From Escherichia coli (lineage in GTDB: Bacteria > Pseudomonadota > Gammaproteobacteria > Enterobacterales > Enterobacteriaceae), in assembly GCF_001677475.2 (NCBI RefSeq), contig NZ_CP015229.1: a stretch of 64,000 nt of DNA; one strand, written 5' to 3'. The position numbers and the translations under genes were made by a program. The notes below the pieces were generated by a model. That model saw nothing but the letters and a program-made list of their open reading frames with translations. It searched no databases and was not told the DNA's origin. This document shows, piece by piece, positions 3,903 through 52,832 of the stretch; position 1 is the stretch's first letter, and every line of letters starts with the position of its first letter.

Positions 3903-4089
3903 GCCTGATGCGACGCTGGCGCGTCTTATCAGGCCTACAAGACCCGAGCACAGAACCGTAGGCCGGATAAGGCGTTCACGCCGCATCCGGCATTCAGTGC
4001 CTGATGCGACGCTGACGCGTCTTATCAGGCCTACAGGTCCCGAGCACAGAACCGTAGGACGGATAAGGCGTTTTACGCCGCATCCGGCA
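3903..4089. repeat. REP/BIME cluster (two inverted REP units)
   Basis: Two copies of gcctgatgcgacgctg.cgcgtcttatcaggcctaca ... ccgtaggncggataaggcgtt.acgccgcatccggca between wcaK and wzxC. Confidence 0.8.
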
Positions 4090-7126: not shown

Positions 7127-8497
7127 TTACTCGTTCAGCAACGTCAGCAGAGTTCGCGTTCGCGCTTCCATCAGCGGCACATCACCGCGCGATTCCACAT
7201 TCAGGCGCACCACCGGTTCGGTGTTGGAGGAGCGCAGGTTAAAGCGCCAGTCGGCAAAGGTCATGCTGATGCCATCGGTGCGATCCACCGCCAGCGCCTC
7301 ACGGCTAAAATGCTGTTCCACGCGGTTAATCGCCTCAACGGGATGCGCCAGTTTGCTGTTGATCTCACCGCTTGCCGGAAACGCCGCCATCCGGTCGCGT
7401 ACCAGTTCGCCCAGCGTTTTCTCTTTCAGGCACACCAGTTCGGCGACCAGCAGCCACGGGATCATGCCGCTGTCGCAGTAAGCGAAATCACGGAAGTAAT
7501 GGTGGGCGCTCATTTCGCCACCGTAGATGGCGTCTTCCTTGCGCATCCGTTCTTTAATAAAGGCGTGTCCGGTTTTCGACATCACCGGAGTGCCGCCCGC
7601 GGCAGTCACCACATCAACGGTGTTCCAGGAGAGACGTGGATCGTGGATGATCTTCGCGCCGGGATTTTTTTCGAGGAACGCTTCTGCCAGTAGGCCGACA
7701 ATGTAGTAGCCCTCAATAAACTGCCCTTTTTCGTCAAACAGGAAACAGCGGTCAAAATCGCCATCAAAGGCAATGCCCATATCCGCGCCGTGTTTGATGA
7801 CCGCATTGCGGGTGTCATCGCGGCATTCCGGCAGCAGCGGGTTAGGAATACCGTTGGGGAAATTGCCGTCCGGCGTGTTGTGCACTTTGATCAATTCCAC
7901 CGGTGCGCCGAGGGCGTTAAAGCGGGCTTCGATAGCGTCCACCACCGGCCCCGCTGCGCCGTTCCCGGAGTTGATTACCAGCTTGAGCGGCGTGAGGTTT
8001 TTGACGTTGATATAACCGAACAGGTGATCAACGTAAGCGTCACGCAGATTGATTTGCTGATAGCGACCGCGTTTTGTTTCATCAACGGGAGGAAAGTCGT
8101 TGGCTTCTGCCAGACGCTGGACGTCGCGCAGTCCGGTATCACCGCTGATCGGGCGGGCCCCTTCGCGCACCAGCTTCATGCCGTTGTAATCCATCGGGTT
8201 ATGGCTGGCGGTAACTTCGATGCCGCCATCCACGCCGAGATGGAACGTGGCGAAATAGATCTCTTCGGTGCCGGACATGCCAATATCCAGCACATCGACG
8301 CCCGCATCCTGTAAACCTTTCGCCAGCGCCAGTTTTAAGGTTTCGCTGGTGAGGCGGACATCACCGCCTAACACAATGGTTTTCGGTTTGAGAAATTCGC
8401 CATAGGCACGCCCAATACGCCAGGCAATATCTTCATTCAGTTCTTCGCCTAATTTCCCGCGAATATCGTAGGCTTTAAAGCAGGTTAATTTTTTCAT
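7127..8497 (-). CDS. cpsG: Phosphomannomutase CpsG (ManB)
   Basis: ORF 7127..8545; start trimmed to [19 protein letters not shown]... (456 aa); phosphohexomutase active-site motif TASHNP present. Confidence 0.9.
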
Positions 8498-8587
8498 GTC
8501 GTTACCCTTTTTCAGGCAATAGTTGGCCCTGACCGAAGCGGCCAATTTTGTTTTTGTCGTTATTTACATCGCGGTTCGGCATTCATT

Positions 8588-21710: not shown

Positions 21711-22850
21711 TTACCAGTTATGAATGTCGCTGGCTGTATCCGTCATGTAACGGACACCGCTAATAGTTGGCAGCAACTGATTGATCAGACGGTTCCAGCG
21801 GGAAACCGGGGCGGTGGTGACATACACCACGTCATAAGGTTGCAGGCGGAATTCTGTCGCCATCACCAGCGACGTCGCATCGGACATATCCAGCTGGTAG
21901 ATATTGGCAATCTTGCCGTTACGCCCGCCCTCGCCTTTCAGCGGACGAATGACAAAGATGCCGCTGGCGTTGGAGGTGGTCATGTCGATACCTTCGGCAT
22001 TGCCCAGAGCTTCAGTCAGGGTCATGCCGCTAAAGTCCATTTTCAGGGTGCTCTGTTTCTTCACTTCACCCATCACAAATACTTTCAGATCATCATTACG
22101 CGGCACGTAGAGAATATCGCCGGGATAAAGCAGTCGGTTCTGATTGAGGTCGCCGTTTTGCATCAGCGCCTGCAAAGAAATGCGTTCTTCACGACCATTG
22201 TGTGTTAGCACCACGTTGCGCCAGTCAGCGGTGTCGGTCAGGCCACCTGCGGCGTTGATGGCATCGAGAATGGTCAGTGGCACGTTGGTGATCGCCTGTT
22301 GACCGGATTTATTCACCTGACCGGAGATATAGGCCTTTTGCGAGCGGAAGGCGGCGATATTAACGTCCACCTGCGGGTCAGCGATGTACGTCGCTAAGCG
22401 CCCGGTAATATCACTGCGGATTTCAGCGAGCGTTTTCCCCACGACGTGAACCTTGCCGATATACGGGTAGAACATAGTGCCGTCAGGCTGTACCCAGTTG
22501 CCGGTGTCGCTGGAGCTGCGGTACTGACCGGCTGGCGTGGTGAGTTCCGGGTGATCCCAGACGGTGACATTAAGAACGTCCCCCGGCCCGACGCGATACT
22601 GGTAATTCGCGATCTCACTTTCCAGCGTCATATTGGGGCGCGCTACATTCGGGCGTGGGCGTAATTGGTCAATCAGGCGCGGGGTCAGCGGATAAACATT
22701 CACCATTTTGTCGAGATCGAAATCAGCGTCCTGCTGTTTGATGACGTCTTTCCCCATCGTCGACATATTGCTGCCCGGAAGTACTGTGCAACCGCTTATC
22801 AAGGTTACTGACACCAATAATGGCATCAATTTCATTTTGGATTTCATCAT
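21711..22850 (-). CDS. wza: Outer-membrane polysaccharide export lipoprotein Wza
   Basis: 379-aa ORF with lipoprotein signal (...[10 protein letters not shown]...); first gene of the cps operon. Confidence 0.9.
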
Positions 22851-23028: not shown

Positions 23029-23040
23029 CACGCTACCGCC
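23029..23040 (-). promoter_or_regulatory. ops element (GGCGGTAGCGTG) inside the JUMPstart of the cps leader; RfaH recruitment site
   Basis: Plus strand reads cacgctaccgcc, so the minus (cps-sense) strand reads ggcggtagcgtg, about 180 nt upstream of the wza ATG in the untranslated leader. Confidence 0.7.
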
Positions 23041-23252
23041 CCTGGCTTTTAGCTACCAATACACTGATTTAGCTTAATTTTTAAAACCCTCTCAACATAC
23101 AGTCGTTGATGAGAAAGGGTTATTGCGGAAATTAACTTCCGAATATAAGGTGACATTATGGTAATTGAATATTGGCTCTCCAATAATGCAGGAGGAAGTG
23201 TTACAGCTAACGGAATAGCAGGCAAGGTAACAATTCGGCAATTGGCTATTTT

Positions 23253-35118: not shown

Positions 35119-37018
35119 CTGCCGCCTGACGTAACGGTTCCATCAACGGCATGGTCCGTGCTGGAGCATGAAGGCGGAATCGCTGCAACTCTGTCGCGCC
35201 GACTGTCAACGCCGATTCCAGCCGATGTCGTTTGGCGGCCATTTTTGCCATTACCGCTTGTCTGTCTGCAGGCGTTATCGCTTCATTCGGCCTGAACACA
35301 AAACGGCGTTCACAGCTCGCTTTCCAGTCGATAACCGCCTGGGTCAGATGGTCGCCAAACCCTTTCACTTGCTTAACACCACGACGGGTAACATCCGCTG
35401 CTGTTTCAATACCAAAGGACCGTAACGCCGCTTTACGCGCAGGGCCAACGCCGGGAATAGAGGCAACATCAATAAAAAATCCCTCCAGAAACTTCTGCTT
35501 CTGCCGTTCCCTTGCAGTGTCATGAAGTGCTGCCAGAGCGCGTTTCTCTTCTTCCGGTAACCCGAGAATTTCGTTCTTCATTTTTTCGAGCATCGTCCGT
35601 TTGGCGATAAAACCTTCCAGCCCGCCCAACTGTTGGATCTGGCTGACTAAATGGTCATAGTCCATTTTTGCGCGATTAAAAGCCTCTCTTCGTCGCTGGA
35701 CTTCTGCTTTGTACGCTTTGCTTGTCAGGCTGCCAATAATCCAGATAGCCGCCAGCACGGGAACCAAAATGATATAACGCGGTTCTACCTGAAGGCCGCA
35801 AAGCAGCAGCGATAATGCTGACAGTGCGATCTCAATCAGAATGATGTATTCACGCCGTAACAGGCCTAAAGGAAGCGGCCTGCCAGTCGGTTGGAAATGA
35901 TCGGGTAATGGTAATTGCAATGCTGGCGGTGCTACTGACGCCATCACCATCGCCCAGACTTTCGCCAGCACAAAATCACCACTGGTGGTAATGACCTCTT
36001 CGCCGAGATCAATAAAATAGATAACGCCTTGATTATCCAGCGCACACCACGGGCAGTCAGTCAAATGACCGGGGTAAACATGCATTGCCGAAACGGTACA
36101 TTTCTTTAACTGTTGGCGTAGTAAATCAAGTGCCGCTACCCACGCTTTTGCCGTCGGACGCGCGGTTGCCACGCCACTTTCCGTGAATGCCTGCTGAAAC
36201 ATGGCTTCAACATCGCCCGGTAACATCGACAGCGGAATAGATCGTGGCGGCGGTTTTAAACCACGCCGCTGATTATCTGACGCGTAGGCATAACGGAAAT
36301 GAGCAATATCCGTCTCCAGCGCATTCCCCGCATCAGAGATAAGCGGTACACCGGAATAAGGATGCCGACCACCAAACAAGACGTGAAAAATCAGCAACGC
36401 AAGGCCAAAATTATCGTGATTCGCGGTGCGTTCAAAGCCGACAAATGATGGCAATGTTTGCAGCTCTGGCGGCGTAAAATGCGACACGCCGACTTCGCAT
36501 AAATGCAGCGTGCCATTGGCGTTAATCTGAAAGGAGTCGCTATCAATCAACACCACTTTGCTGTCGCGACCTACCATAAAGCTGTTCTGGTTTACGTCCC
36601 CCACGACGTGCCCGTGCTCGTGAACCGTAGCAAAAGATGAAGCAATATTGCGCGCAACATAGAGTAGAAAATCCCACGCACAATGAGGGTAACTCTGGCG
36701 ACGATGTGCCGGGCTATAGATCATATGAATCGGTTCTTTACCAGAAACTTTTGGCATCATAAAACCGATAACTTTTCCGCCTCGTCCACCGTGAAGCGTT
36801 GCCTGCGGCCAGGCGACATAATTCAGCAACTGCGCGTCAGCTGTCGCAGCCATAAAGGCAAGTTTGTCCTGTTTTAATGCGGGTGGCGGCGTGTGATAAA
36901 TCTTGGCGACGCTATCGACAAACTCCTCGATATCATAAACCGCGCCTTCGCCACCTTTGCCCAGTTCACGGCCTGGCGTAACGCACTCACCAGTAGCAGT
37001 ATATAAAGTGTGTTTCAT
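35078..37018 (-). CDS. yegI: Ser/Thr protein kinase-like protein YegI
   Basis: ORF 35078..37027; ATG at 37016-37018 ([11 protein letters not shown]...) overlaps the pphC stop as ATGA; protein-kinase-like N-terminal half, internal TM segment. Confidence 0.8.
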   Translation of the reverse strand: MKHTLYTATGECVTPGRELGKGGEGAVYDIEEFVDSVAKIYHTPPPALKQDKLAFMAATADAQLLNYVAWPQATLHGGRGGKVIGFMMPKVSGKEPIHMIYSPAHRRQSYPHCAWDFLLYVARNIASSFATVHEHGHVVGDVNQNSFMVGRDSKVVLIDSDSFQINANGTLHLCEVGVSHFTPPELQTLPSFVGFERTANHDNFGLALLIFHVLFGGRHPYSGVPLISDAGNALETDIAHFRYAYASDNQRRGLKPPPRSIPLSMLPGDVEAMFQQAFTESGVATARPTAKAWVAALDLLRQQLKKCTVSAMHVYPGHLTDCPWCALDNQGVIYFIDLGEEVITTSGDFVLAKVWAMVMASVAPPALQLPLPDHFQPTGRPLPLGLLRREYIILIEIALSALSLLLCGLQVEPRYIILVPVLAAIWIIGSLTSKAYKAEVQRRREAFNRAKMDYDHLVSQIQQLGGLEGFIAKRTMLEKMKNEILGLPEEEKRALAALHDTARERQKQKFLEGFFIDVASIPGVGPARKAALRSFGIETAADVTRRGVKQVKGFGDHLTQAVIDWKASCERRFVFRPNEAITPADRQAVMAKMAAKRHRLESALTVGATELQRFRLHAPARTMPLMEPLRQAAEKLAQAQADLSRC

Positions 37019-37776
37019 GGTAACCACAGCGCCAGTGCCAACGTTTTATCATCATCGGTACGCTCGTTTACCGCCGGGCTGGACAAAAACTGCTTTAACA
37101 ATTCAGGTAATAAATCGAGTTGTTCCTGCGTTGCTGACACCAGCCCATTGAAAAACGGGGTAAAGAAAGGCACATGGGGAGAATTATCCAGCATATTTAA
37201 CGCCAGCCGCTGGATACCATCCGTAAATGCTGCAACTTTGTGCGCACGCTCAGTGCTGGTGAAAGTTTCCAGTCTGGAAACCGCATCTTCATCGGTAATG
37301 AAGTGCGTCATGTTGGCATATTCACCCACCATCGGCGTGAGCGGCAGTTGCAGACCGTGCCCCAAATCTACCACCACACCGCCGTCGCCAATCTGCATAA
37401 TCAGGGTGCCATTAGCTGATGAAATCAATCCCAGAAACGTGCAGGCAAAATCGCGAACAGCTAATTCTTTGGCTTCCGCCTCGGCAAAAAGTCGCTGACG
37501 AACGGTCAGCACAATATCCGTTGCGAGGACATCATTGAGCCCCAATTCCCCGCCCTGCACTTTTTGCATCATATAAGCCATCGCTTCATTGACGGCGAGC
37601 ATCGCGCCTTCGCCACCCTGCGAGACGCTACCTGCGCCATCGGCGACAAATACCGACAATAATGGCTGCTGGTCATTTAGCCAGGCAACCTGCATCTGGC
37701 AGGCATCCTGGCAAGGCAAGTCCGCGCTGATGTGCGACGTTCCAACGGTTGATGCATAGACCAGACGCCAGCTCAC
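37015..37776 (-). CDS. pphC: PP2C-family Ser/Thr phosphatase PphC (YegK)
   Basis: 253-aa [30 protein letters not shown]...[12 protein letters not shown]...; start overlaps the yegL stop by 4 bp. Confidence 0.85.
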
Positions 37777-38432
37777 ACTGACGTCCAGCCTTTTGGCGCT
37801 TCCAGCACAACTTCCGTTCCCGGCGTGGAGCGGGAAACCGAACGCAGCGAACTGGATAACCAGCTAAACAGTTCACGGAATTGTAATCCCTGCAGTGGCA
37901 AAGGCTGACGAACGCTGATTTGTGCCAGCGTCTTCATATCCGCCCCCTGAACGCCGATGGCAAAGAAGGCAAACTTCTTACCTTCTTCCCCCTGAAACAC
38001 TTTGTTGGCGGCTGCCTGCCACTCATCGGTTGGTGCACCATCAGTGATCATGAAAATCCACGGACGATAATAGGAAATACCATTGGCGCGATACTCACGT
38101 TTGCGCTCCTCAACCATATCCAGGGCTTTGGTAATGGCGGCCCCCATTGGTGTATCGCCCTGGGCAAACAGGATGGGCGGGAAAAAGTTAGCGGCGCTGG
38201 TAAAGGGTTGTTCCACATGCACTGGGCCGAACGTCACAATACCAAGTTCCACTCTTTTTAAGGCCAGCGGGTCGGCAAGCAGCTCATCGCGAAAGGTAAC
38301 CAATCCGGCGTTAAGTTCATTAATGGGTCTACCGTTCATCGAACCAGAAACATCCAGCAGCAAAATGCAGGGGCAACGTGGTTCCGGGTTACTGGCAAAA
38401 TCGCTGGTGGCAAACGTGATTTGTTCGCTCAT
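37773..38432 (-). CDS. yegL: von Willebrand factor A domain protein YegL
   Basis: 219-aa ORF with vWA MIDAS motif (LLLDVSGSM). Confidence 0.85.
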
Positions 38433-38613
38433 AAGAAATCCTTTCTTAGAGAATTATTGAGGTCCGGTATCATACCGATTGCAATAATGAAATAAGAGCA
38501 AACGAAGAAACTTTCAGAATTAGTCCCGGCGGCGCAGAAAATTTTGCTATTCGCCTCGCAAGAACGGAGAGCCGTCGATTGACACTAAGGGCGGAGTGAC
38601 ATAATTTCAGGAG

Positions 38614-38763
38614 TGAGGGTTAGGGAGAGGTTTCCCCCTCCCCCTGGTGTTCTTAGTAAGCCTGGAAGCTAATCACTAAGAGTATCACCAGTATGATGAC
38701 GTGCTTCATCATAACCCTTTCCTTATTAAAAGCCCTCTTCTCCGGGAGAGGCTTTCCCGTTTC
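38614..38763 (+). ncRNA. sibA: Sib antitoxin sRNA, copy 1 (SibA-like); ends approximate
   Basis: Promoter ttgaca (38579-84), 17-bp spacer, taattt; antisense to the whole ibs ORF; terminator hairpin agccctcttctccgggagaggct plus tttcccgttt. Confidence 0.6.
38653..38712 (-). CDS. ibsA: Ibs type I toxin peptide, 19 aa (MMKHVIILVILLVISFQAY)
   Basis: Minus-strand atgatgaagcacgtcatcatactggtgatactcttagtgattagcttccaggcttactaa; hydrophobic Ibs-family peptide fully overlapped by the antisense Sib. Confidence 0.8.
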   Translation of the reverse strand: MMKHVIILVILLVISFQAY

Positions 38764-38948
38764 AGCGTCCCGCTGAAATCGTCGGCTTACCTCCTTTCGC
38801 CCTGAATGCAGTCTATCGCTAACGCGTGAACAAAATAGTTTCCTCTGTGATTATTGCGTAACGACTCGCAAAGAATATTTGCTGGCAGGATCGCAGACTG
38901 CAAAGCCTGCAGATTGACAATCTTATCGTGAAGGCATACTTTCAGGAG

Positions 38949-39090
38949 TGAGGGTAGAGCGGGGGTTCCCCCGCCCTGGTAGTCTTAGTAAGCCGGGAAG
39001 CTTATGACTAAGAGCACCACGATGATGATCCACTTCATCATGACCCTTTCCTTATTTAAGGCCCCTTCCTCGGGAGGGGCTTTCCCGTTT
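38949..39090 (+). ncRNA. sibB: Sib antitoxin sRNA, copy 2; ends approximate
   Basis: Promoter ttgaca (38914-19), N17, tacttt (38937-42); terminator gccccttcctcgggaggggc plus tttcccgttt. Confidence 0.6.
38985..39041 (-). CDS. ibsB: Ibs type I toxin peptide, 18 aa (MMKWIIIVVLLVISFPAY)
   Basis: Minus-strand atgatgaagtggatcatcatcgtggtgctcttagtcataagcttcccggcttactaa. Confidence 0.8.
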   Translation of the reverse strand: MMKWIIIVVLLVISFPAY

Positions 39091-39276
39091 CAGCGTCCCG
39101 CTGAAATCATCGGCTTACCTCCTTTCGCCCTGAATGCAGTCTATCGCTGACTTGCGGATAAAATAGTTTCACATGTGATTATTGCGTAGCGTCTCGCAAA
39201 GAATATTTGCTGGCAGGATCGCAGACTGCAAAGCCTGCAGATTGACAATCTTATCGTGAAGGCATACTTTCAGGAG

Positions 39277-39418
39277 TGAGGGTAGAGCGGGGTTTCCCCC
39301 GCCCTGGTAGTCTTAGTAAGCTGGCCAGCTAATGACTAAGAGCACCACGATGATGAGTATCTTCATCATGACCCTTTCCTTATTTAAGACCCCTTCCTCG
39401 GGAGGGGCTTTCCCGTTT
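39277..39418 (+). ncRNA. Sib antitoxin sRNA, copy 3; ends approximate
   Basis: Promoter ttgaca (39242-47), N17, tacttt (39265-70); terminator hairpin 39388-39408 plus T-run. Confidence 0.6.
39313..39369 (-). CDS. Ibs type I toxin peptide, 18 aa (MMKILIIVVLLVISWPAY)
   Basis: Minus-strand atgatgaagatactcatcatcgtggtgctcttagtcattagctggccagcttactaa. Confidence 0.75.
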   Translation of the reverse strand: MMKILIIVVLLVISWPAY

Positions 39419-39576
39419 CAGCGTCCCGCTGAAATCGTCGGCTTACCTCCTTTCGCCATGCAAGCAGTCTATCGCTAACGCGTAGATAAAATAGTTTCAT
39501 GTGTTATTACTGGATGCGTGCTCGCAAATGTGCCCGTCATTCAGACGATTCCCGACAGTGTTTCATAATTCCTCCA

Positions 39577-39647: not shown

Positions 39648-40895
39648 ATGAAAGGCAGTTATAAATCCCGTTGGGTAATCGTAATCGTGGTGGTTATCGC
39701 CGCCATCGCCGCATTCTGGTTCTGGCAAGGCCGCAATGACTCCCGGAGTGCAGCCCCAGGGGCGACGAAACAAGCGCAGCAATCGCCAGCGGGTGGTCGC
39801 CGTGGTATGCGTTCCGGCCCATTAGCCCCGGTTCAGGCGGCGACCGCCGTAGAACAGGCAGTTCCGCGTTACCTCACCGGGCTTGGCACCATTACCGCCG
39901 CTAATACTGTTACGGTGCGCAGCCGCGTGGACGGTCAACTGATGGCGTTGCATTTCCAGGAAGGCCAGCAGGTCAAAGCAGGCGATTTATTGGCAGAAAT
40001 TGACCCCAGCCAGTTCAAAGTTGCATTAGCACAAGCCCAGGGCCAACTGGCAAAAGATAAAGCCACGCTTGCCAACGCCCGCCGTGACCTGGCGCGTTAT
40101 CAACAACTGGTAAAAACCAATCTCGTCTCCCGCCAGGAGCTGGATGCCCAACAAGCGCTGGTCAGTGAAACCGAAGGCACCATTAAGGCTGATGAAGCAA
40201 GCGTCGCCAGCGCACAGCTGCAACTCGACTGGAGCCGTATTACCGCACCAGTCGATGGTCGCGTTGGTCTCAAGCAGGTTGATGTTGGTAACCAAATCTC
40301 CAGTGGTGATACCACCGGGATTGTGGTGATCACCCAGACGCATCCTATCGATTTGCTCTTTACCCTGCCGGAAAGCGATATCGCTACCGTCGTGCAGGCG
40401 CAAAAAGCCGGGAAACCGCTGGTGGTAGAAGCCTGGGATCGCACCAATTCAAAGAAATTAAGCGAAGGCACGCTGTTAAGTCTCGATAACCAAATCGATG
40501 CCACAACCGGTACGATTAAAGTGAAAGCACGCTTTAATAATCAGGATGATGCGCTGTTTCCCAATCAGTTTGTTAACGCGCGCATGTTAGTCGACACCGA
40601 ACAAAACGCCGTAGTGATCCCAACAGCCGCCCTGCAAATGGGCAATGAAGGCCATTTTGTCTGGGTGCTGAATAGCGAAAACAAGGTCAGCAAACATCTG
40701 GTGACGCCGGGCATTCAGGACAGTCAGAAAGTGGTGATCCGTGCAGGTATTTCTGCGGGCGATCGCGTGGTGACAGACGGCATTGATCGCCTGACCGAAG
40801 GGGCGAAAGTGGAAGTGGTGGAAGCCCAGAGCGCCACTACTCCGGAAGAGAAAGCCACCAGCCGCGAATACGCGAAAAAAGGAGCACGCTCCTGA
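39648..40895 (+). CDS. mdtA: RND efflux membrane-fusion (periplasmic adaptor) protein MdtA
   Basis: ORF 39501..40895 trimmed to [28 protein letters not shown]... (415 aa). Confidence 0.9.
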
Positions 40896-52713: not shown

Positions 52714-52745
52714 CAGCTGCATTTATTAAGGTTATCATCCGTTTC

Positions 52746-52832
52746 GCTGAAAAACATAACCCATAAAATGCTAGCTGTACCAGGAACCACCTCCTTAGCC
52801 TGTGTAATCTCCCTTACACGGGCTTATTTTTT
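52746..52832 (+). ncRNA. cyaR: CyaR (RyeE) Hfq-dependent sRNA
   Basis: gctgaaaaacataacccataaaatgctagctgtaccaggaaccacctccttagcctgtgtaatctcccttacacgggcttatttttt matches my memory of CyaR and ends in a terminator hairpin (gtgtaa...ttacac) plus T6. Confidence 0.85.
52806..52832. other. Phage P2-type attachment core, apparently unoccupied attB, at the cyaR 3' end
   Basis: aatctcccttacacgggcttatttttt is the reverse complement of the P2 att core AAAAAATAAGCCCGTGTAAGGGAGATT (from memory); no ogr-like or other phage ORF follows. Confidence 0.55.

Follow-up and report, generated by a model that had tools for sequence, protein, structure and literature searches.

Three tandem Ibs/Sib toxin-antitoxin units between yegL and mdtA are a common length variant of a well-studied Escherichia coli locus

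The yegL-mdtA spacer and its three Ibs/Sib units

In the 64,000-nucleotide stretch of E. coli DNA analysed here (the window), the spacer between yegL and mdtA contains three head-to-tail Ibs/Sib units with a period of 328-335 nt. The left flank, yegL (37773-38432, minus strand), is a 219-aa ORF for a vWA-domain protein, annotated as yegL at the matching position in E. coli genomes. The right flank, mdtA (39648-40895, plus strand), is a 415-aa gene call in an identical draft contig and is annotated as mdtA in E. coli genomes. The position of the array is orthologous, with both flanks syntenic with K-12 and with the matching records in 5,419 of 5,426 complete genomes.

A scan with all Rfam families gave three SIB_RNA (RF00113) matches on the plus strand, at 38579-38727 (149.5 bits), 38914-39056 (137.8 bits) and 39242-39384 (139.3 bits). 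All three were full-length (model positions 1-147), with E-values from 1e-29 to 3e-32 and a gathering score for the family of 56 bits; such scores are far beyond chance. An earlier note on this DNA had described three tandem units with minus-strand Ibs peptides of 18-19 aa, and the peptides found were exactly those that it had quoted, with the three SIB_RNA matches covering their ORFs. The units lie in the spacer as it had placed them, with a correction to the span: the array begins 11 nt earlier than the 38590 given there, at 38579, where the putative -35 element of Sib1 lies.

In each unit, the toxin ORF and its Shine-Dalgarno sequence (SD) lie wholly inside, and antisense to, the Sib RNA. 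The first ORF, ibs1 (38653-38712, minus strand), falls within Sib1 (38615-38758, plus strand), ibs2 (38985-39041, minus) within Sib2 (38950-39085, plus) and ibs3 (39313-39369, minus) within Sib3 (39278-39413, plus). Sib1 is 144 nt and takes its ends from the K-12 sibA annotation, to which it is identical at 144/144 positions. Sib2 and Sib3 are both SibB-type antitoxin RNAs of about 136 nt, with the ends of Sib2 taken from K-12 sibB and those of Sib3 transferred from the K-12 annotation. With these ends, all three would begin with +1G, which is the start nucleotide of sibA and sibB (PMC12956327).

For the toxins, ibs1 is ibsA and encodes the 19-aa peptide MMKHVIILVILLVISFQAY, the same as K-12 IbsA (WP_010723109.1). 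The ibs2 ORF encodes the 18-aa peptide MMKWIIIVVLLVISFPAY, whose RefSeq accession, WP_012767741.1, is also annotated in 19KM1831, O157:H7, E. coli B, 504838 and ATCC 43896. The 18-aa product of ibs3, MMKILIIVVLLVISWPAY (WP_100692412.1), was verified by translation and matched Pfam Ibs_toxin with E = 3.3e-8. RefSeq accessions already exist for all three peptides, which PGAP names as Ibs family toxins, and PF13956 is recorded for each of them in an identical public contig. Directly upstream of every ibs ORF is AAGGAAAGGGT(T/C), giving an SD plus ATGATG. Conserved 48-aa ORFs on the plus strand of units 2 and 3 were discounted as a mechanical result of reading through the Sib/terminator region.

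The putative Sib1 (SibA) promoter (38579-38605, plus strand), which corresponds to positions 1-27 of the Rfam model, is composed of TTGACA (38579-38584), a 15-nt spacer and TG-n-CATAAT (38600-38605). By sequence and Rfam alignment, those of Sib2 (38914-38940) and Sib3 (39242-39268), on the same strand, would consist of TTGACA (38914-38919 and 39242-39247), again a 15-nt spacer, and CATACT (38935-38940 and 39263-39268). A scan of the window with generic sigma-70 promoter and terminator consensus sequences called none of the Sib promoters or terminators. This can be explained by the 15-nt spacing between the -35 and -10 elements and by a terminator tail, CUUUCCCGUUU, that is not a clean T run. 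The calls made here rest instead on identity or near-identity to the K-12 sibA and sibB ends, the Rfam model and the predicted folds. The promoter and terminator that had been proposed for the plus strand of each unit are thus placed at the K-12 end positions by homology and fold, and are uncalled by the generic scan.

Sib1, Sib2 and Sib3 are predicted to share a common fold, in which a closing P1 stem is followed by a TRD1 hairpin and then by a start-codon hairpin (ATGATGA...TCATCAT). In the 3' part, a single-stranded CUUUCCUUAUU segment (TRD2) precedes a GC-rich terminator hairpin, predicted at 38729-38755 in Sib1 (fold z = -4.5), 39058-39083 in Sib2 (z = -4.2) and 39386-39410 in Sib3 (z = -3.6). 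The predicted folds match the published Sib architecture.

On the minus strand, a hairpin formed by TTTCAGCG-TCC-CGCTGAAA is located at 38760-38778, near the probable 5' end of the ibs1 mRNA, with copies at 39088-39106 and 39416-39434. This hairpin, TTTCAGCGTCCCGCTGAAA, is kept in every unit; it is nearly invariant across 12 units and recognisable in K-12 ibsC, ibsD and ibsE. The ibsC and ibsD transcripts have been mapped and are about 160 nt long (PMC2943612). By analogy with this mapping, ibs transcription would start about 59 nt upstream of the ATG, near the hairpin. Alignment of the upstream regions with those of K-12 ibsC, ibsD and ibsE revealed no convincing ibs promoter. The best candidates were weak, with TTCAGG or TTGCAT followed after 17-18 nt by GACGAT.

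Unit number in E. coli and the origin of the array

Of 5,426 complete E. coli genomes searched, 5,419 contained the locus, giving 5,422 matching records. Unit numbers were estimated from two samples, of 40 and 60 records, picked at regular intervals along the ranking and classed by span and annotated ibs genes. In the 40-row sample, four units were present in 3 records, three in 18, two in 16 and one in 1, and 2 were unclear. In the 60-row sample, for which the four-unit array of E. coli B was used as the query, the corresponding numbers were 8, 24, 23 and 3, again with 2 unclear. Among the sampled complete-genome records, three units were therefore found in about 40-45%, two in about 40%, four in about 8-13% and one in about 3-5%. 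In E. coli, three units is co-modal with two and an ordinary arrangement of the locus.

For the reference strains, K-12 MG1655 has two units at the locus (sibA/ibsA and sibB/ibsB), O157:H7 and E. coli 042 have three each, and E. coli B has four, seen as four Rfam matches. The K-12 annotation bears out the two units that the earlier note had given for that strain. The possibility, also raised in the earlier note, that K-12 and most strains carry three units here turned out to be half right: K-12 has two, but three units are as common as two. A pattern scan of genome contigs brought up five Escherichia lineages; in lineages other than E. coli, the representatives had one or two units each. Variation between genomes was described in the 2010 survey by Fozo and colleagues, which counted 6-7 ibs genes per genome in O157:H7, 7 in S. 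boydii, S. sonnei and E. fergusonii, 4 in S. flexneri and 3 in S. dysenteriae (PMC2887945); a 2024 BLASTn copy-number study in mSystems did not cover ibs/sib.

The third unit could in principle be a mis-assembled duplicate within a two-unit array. Two drafts of the same lineage contain contigs interrupted within the array, at window positions 38966 in unit 2 and 39294 in unit 3, which correspond to one place in the repeat, indicating that short-read assemblers struggle here. However, the units are distinct in sequence, each with its own peptide, a contig of GCA_016118575.1 crosses the entire array and matches the window at 100% identity over 15,123 nt, and the same three-unit layout is present in thousands of complete genomes. 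An assembly duplication is ruled out on these grounds, and the probability of such an artefact is negligible. Unit counts from short-read drafts are themselves unreliable, because contigs break inside the array.

The earlier note had proposed that this strain gained one unit by tandem amplification, that is, that a K-12-like array of two units acquired a third by tandem duplication in the strain or its immediate ancestors. K-12 does have two units, and tandem repeats of about 330 nt are a natural substrate for duplication. The sequences of the units argue against it. The core of window unit 2 shares 99.2% identity with O157 unit 2 and 97.6% with E. coli B unit 3, against 92.0% with window unit 3; for unit 3, identity to the final unit of both O157 and B is 95.2%. 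Units 2 and 3 are each nearer to a counterpart in a distant strain than to each other, and 8% of positions differ between them over 300 nt. In addition, the three-unit state is found in around 40-45% of the sampled records, and the same three peptides occur in ETEC 504838 and ATCC 43896, which are just 97.4% identical to the window at the locus. The array is also not a K-12 array plus one unit, because neither the unit 2 peptide nor the unit 3 peptide is K-12 IbsB (MMKLLIIVVLLVISFPAY). With three units common, units 2 and 3 diverged and counterparts present elsewhere, the proposed gain is unsupported, and we regard a recent duplication as highly improbable.

As the units resemble their positional counterparts in other strains more than their own neighbours, they would predate the divergence of the strains. 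From these identities, the units appear to be old paralogues with recognisable counterparts across strains. The peptides also extend beyond the strains named so far: E. whittamii encodes MMKWIIIVVLLVISFPAY too, and strain E69 and Escherichia sp. E1V33 encode MMKILIIVVLLVISWPAY.

In the K-12 sibB unit, a core 99.2% identical to that of E. coli B unit 2 is joined to a distal spacer 100% identical to that of B unit 4. This suggests that the K-12 array is a deletion derivative, with a deletion chimera as its second unit, and not the baseline from which the other arrays should be measured. Spacer types are shuffled among positions in different strains, which would be consistent with repeated unequal crossing-over or gene conversion.

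We therefore hold with high confidence that the three-unit array is a common allele of a polymorphic array of one to four units, in which old paralogues would have been reshuffled by unequal crossing-over or gene conversion between repeats of about 330 nt, and in which the modules would work as set out below. The family membership of the RNAs and peptides, the orthology of the locus, the population frequency and the age of the units on which this reading draws come from the present analysis. K-12 is a poor baseline for the locus, where two, three and four units are all common.

Proposed mechanism, recognition domains and the Trp allele

In the proposed mechanism, the plus-strand promoter of each unit would drive synthesis of a Sib sRNA (about 136-144 nt) terminating at the GC-rich hairpin, while the opposite strand would yield a low level of an ibs mRNA, about 160 nt long, translated into a hydrophobic membrane peptide of 18-19 aa. 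The Sib RNA would be complementary to the entire ibs ORF and its ribosome-binding site. By analogy with SibC/ibsC, pairing would begin at TRD1, opposite the last ibs codons, and at TRD2, opposite the SD and start codon. Pairing would then block translation and lead to RNase III-dependent decay of the mRNA, with toxin being made only if the level of Sib falls.

The repression mechanism, the toxicity of the peptides and the transcript ends of the window units are presumed from published work on K-12 SibC, SibD and IbsC. SibC has two independent recognition domains, TRD1 at the end of the ORF and TRD2 at the translation-initiation region, which set its specificity for the ibs mRNA (PMC2943612). 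Sib action proceeds by a block in translation followed by RNase III-dependent decay (PMC4147584). When overproduced, IbsC depolarises the membrane, and its toxicity needs central hydrophobic and C-terminal residues (PMC8309996); Salmonella IbsA, according to a preprint, inhibits the Fo sector of ATP synthase. For the K-12 pairs, both toxicity of the overproduced peptide and repression by the cognate Sib are known (PMC2943612, PMC4147584, PMC8309996).

When the TRD coordinates of SibC were transferred by alignment of the Sib sequences, unit 1 was found to be unlike units 2 and 3 in both TRD1 and TRD2. Sib2 and Sib3 have 10 differences in 136 positions; their TRD2 is identical, with an identical run of 28 nt, and they are distinguished only by TRD1, which has 4 mismatches, and by the loop of the start-codon hairpin. 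In SibC/SibD swaps, one TRD forming a contiguous helix of 22-25 bp was sufficient for repression (PMC2943612). Cross-repression between units 2 and 3 is plausible from the sequences, because they share TRD2 and one TRD sufficed in those swaps. Full insulation of the two units is doubtful, as their TRD2 is identical and only 4 mismatches separate them at TRD1.

A tentative extension is that units 2 and 3 are not mutually insulated, so that Sib2 and Sib3 could each repress the toxin mRNA of the other, and that the variation at residue 15, whose codon sits in the middle of TRD1, may reflect selection on RNA-RNA recognition and not on the peptide. We consider this possible, although somewhat unlikely. 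If true, the array would be a natural series of tandem type I modules drifting between redundancy and specificity, and would show why units can be lost by unequal crossing-over without cell death. The pairs within one array are unequally diverged in their Sib specificity domains and could serve in studies of cross-talk.

For the third peptide, a Trp in place of the conserved Phe near the C-terminus had been pointed out. The Trp is present, but it is not new, as the peptide is the known allele WP_100692412.1. The exact 57-nt ibs3 ORF occurs in 12 complete E. coli genomes, and the two of these that were examined, 504838 and ATCC 43896, carry all three window peptides in the window order, WP_010723109.1 (IbsA), WP_012767741.1 and WP_100692412.1, with MMKILIIVVLLVISWPAY annotated under the last of these as 'type I toxin-antitoxin system Ibs family toxin'. 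Another 116 records have a Sib3 with one base different; two of these, 19KM1831 and 042, were examined, and both encode MMKLLIIVVLLVISWPAY (WP_100249772.1). The collected alleles have Phe, Tyr, Trp or Leu at residue 15 and LL, IL, WI or LV at residues 4-5, in several combinations.

The Trp-Pro codons of ibs3 create a 12-nt palindrome, AGCTGGCCAGCT (39319-39330), inside the TRD1-equivalent segment of Sib3/ibs3; units 1 and 2 have no palindrome of at least 8 nt at this position. In the predicted folds, the loop of the P5 (TRD1) hairpin is 4 nt in Sib3 and 6 nt in Sib1 and Sib2; the shortening of the TRD1 loop from 6 to 4 nt is a predicted effect of the palindrome of the Trp allele, AGCUGGCCAGCU in Sib3.

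These features of unit 3 allow for another possibility, which is that the array is partly decayed and that one unit, most plausibly unit 3 with its Trp and TRD1 palindrome, has no active toxin or specific antitoxin. The Sib of the decayed unit would then serve only as a spare antitoxin for its neighbour. The identical TRD2 of Sib2 and Sib3 with its 28-nt run, together with the sufficiency of 22-25 bp of contiguous pairing at one TRD in the SibC/SibD swaps (PMC2943612), would make one unit redundant and relax selection on it, and C-terminal residues matter for the toxicity of IbsC (PMC8309996), residue 15 being the one altered here. However, the ORF and SD of unit 3 and its putative Sib promoter and terminator are intact, with an Rfam score (139.3) equal to that of unit 2, and position 15 remains aromatic or hydrophobic (F/Y/W/L). 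The Trp allele is also kept with identical codon context in divergent Escherichia lineages, which argues for a maintained function and against decay. A decayed unit is unlikely.

Comparison with known systems

The array is real, correctly named and already annotated, and represents a length variant that is common at this well-studied locus. Publications from 2008-2010 had already described the module, its arrangement in tandem and its copy-number differences between strains, and the importance of the present case is small beyond correct annotation.

The closest known systems are sibA/ibsA and sibB/ibsB of K-12, which agree with the window in locus, family and orientation. Window unit 1 is identical to SibA/IbsA (144/144 nt), and units 2 and 3 are SibB-type, each with 7 differences from K-12 SibB in a 136-nt alignment. 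K-12 differs in having two units and an IbsB peptide that is absent from the window, while the two 18-aa peptides of the window are absent from K-12.

Among the longer arrays, those of ETEC 504838 and ATCC 43896 have three units with the same peptides in the same order as the window, in spite of the limited nucleotide identity at the locus given above. The window lineage itself is absent from the 5,426 complete genomes, the best of which is 97.7% identical over 24 kb. The O157:H7 array is at the same locus and its first two peptides are identical to those of the window. In the E. coli B array, also at this locus, the third unit encodes the window unit 2 peptide and a K-12-type IbsB unit is additionally kept. 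The last unit of both O157 and B ends in ...ISYPAY, with Tyr, whereas window unit 3 ends in ...ISWPAY, with Trp.

SibC/ibsC and SibD/ibsD resemble the window units in their fold and in the placement of TRD1 at the end of the ORF and TRD2 at the SD and start codon. They differ in being at other loci, in encoding 19-aa peptides and in having +1A, NAD-capped transcripts in contrast to the +1G of the SibA/SibB type. The ldr/rdl and zor/orz systems are alike in pairing a small hydrophobic toxin with an antisense sRNA, in being duplicated within one intergenic region and in having a copy number that varies between strains. However, their sequences are unrelated, and their antitoxins are either divergently encoded or overlap the 5' UTR alone, unlike Sib, which spans the entire toxin ORF.

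Lineage of the window and its other RNA elements

When the segment at 27000-51000 was compared with 5,426 complete E. coli genomes, the top identity was only 97.7% over 24 kb, whereas three draft assemblies (GCA_016118575.1, GCA_012665465.1 and GCA_012921415.1) were 99.99-100% identical to the window across 10.7-15 kb. The window therefore belongs to an E. coli-like lineage absent from the complete RefSeq genomes. The other Rfam matches were a CyaR sRNA (52744-52829), two REP-derived naRNA4 elements (3961-4031 and 61341-61411), and two minus-strand elements: an algC RNA motif (8502-8551), adjoining the 5' end of ORF 7127-8545, and a JUMPstart element (23029-23066), which lies upstream of ORF 21711-22850. 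These matches are all to be expected in this E. coli region.

Conserved sequences within the repeat units

Each of the three units carries one perfect AAGGAGG on the minus strand (38790-38797, 39118-39125 and 39446-39453). This motif, inside the block GGCGAAAGGAGGTAAGCCGA, showed no variation across the aligned A/B-type units (12/12) and is located upstream of the point where ibs transcription is inferred to begin. No start codon is present at SD distance after AAGGAGG. The motif may act as a promoter element or as a standby site in a longer transcript, or it may have no role.

ORF calling also returned a 48-aa plus-strand ORF in unit 2 (39004-39150) and in unit 3 (39332-39478), both reading MTKSTTMM...FPFQRPAEI.GLPPFA..AVYR. 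These ORFs start within Sib and then read across the terminator, and most likely arise as a mechanical consequence of the repeat.

Unit number in draft assemblies and related genomes

The array breaks short-read assemblies. In one draft assembly a contig starts within unit 2 (window 38966) and in another within unit 3 (window 39294); the two starts share the same in-unit position and are 328 nt apart. Therefore, counts of ibs/sib units taken from draft genomes are unreliable.

At this locus, E. albertii, E. whittamii and Escherichia sp. MOD1-EC7003 each have one SibB-type unit, adjoining mdtA, and none has a unit of the type encoding the 19-aa IbsA-type peptide. E. albertii also gave no alignment to approximately 35150-38500 of the window (yegI-pphC-yegL).

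In the K-12 sibB unit, the core is 99.2% identical to that of unit 2 of E. coli B, and the distal spacer is 100% identical to that of unit 4 of E. coli B. The K-12 unit therefore looks like a chimera of these two parts, which suggests that the two-unit array of K-12 arose from a four-unit array via deletion between repeats.
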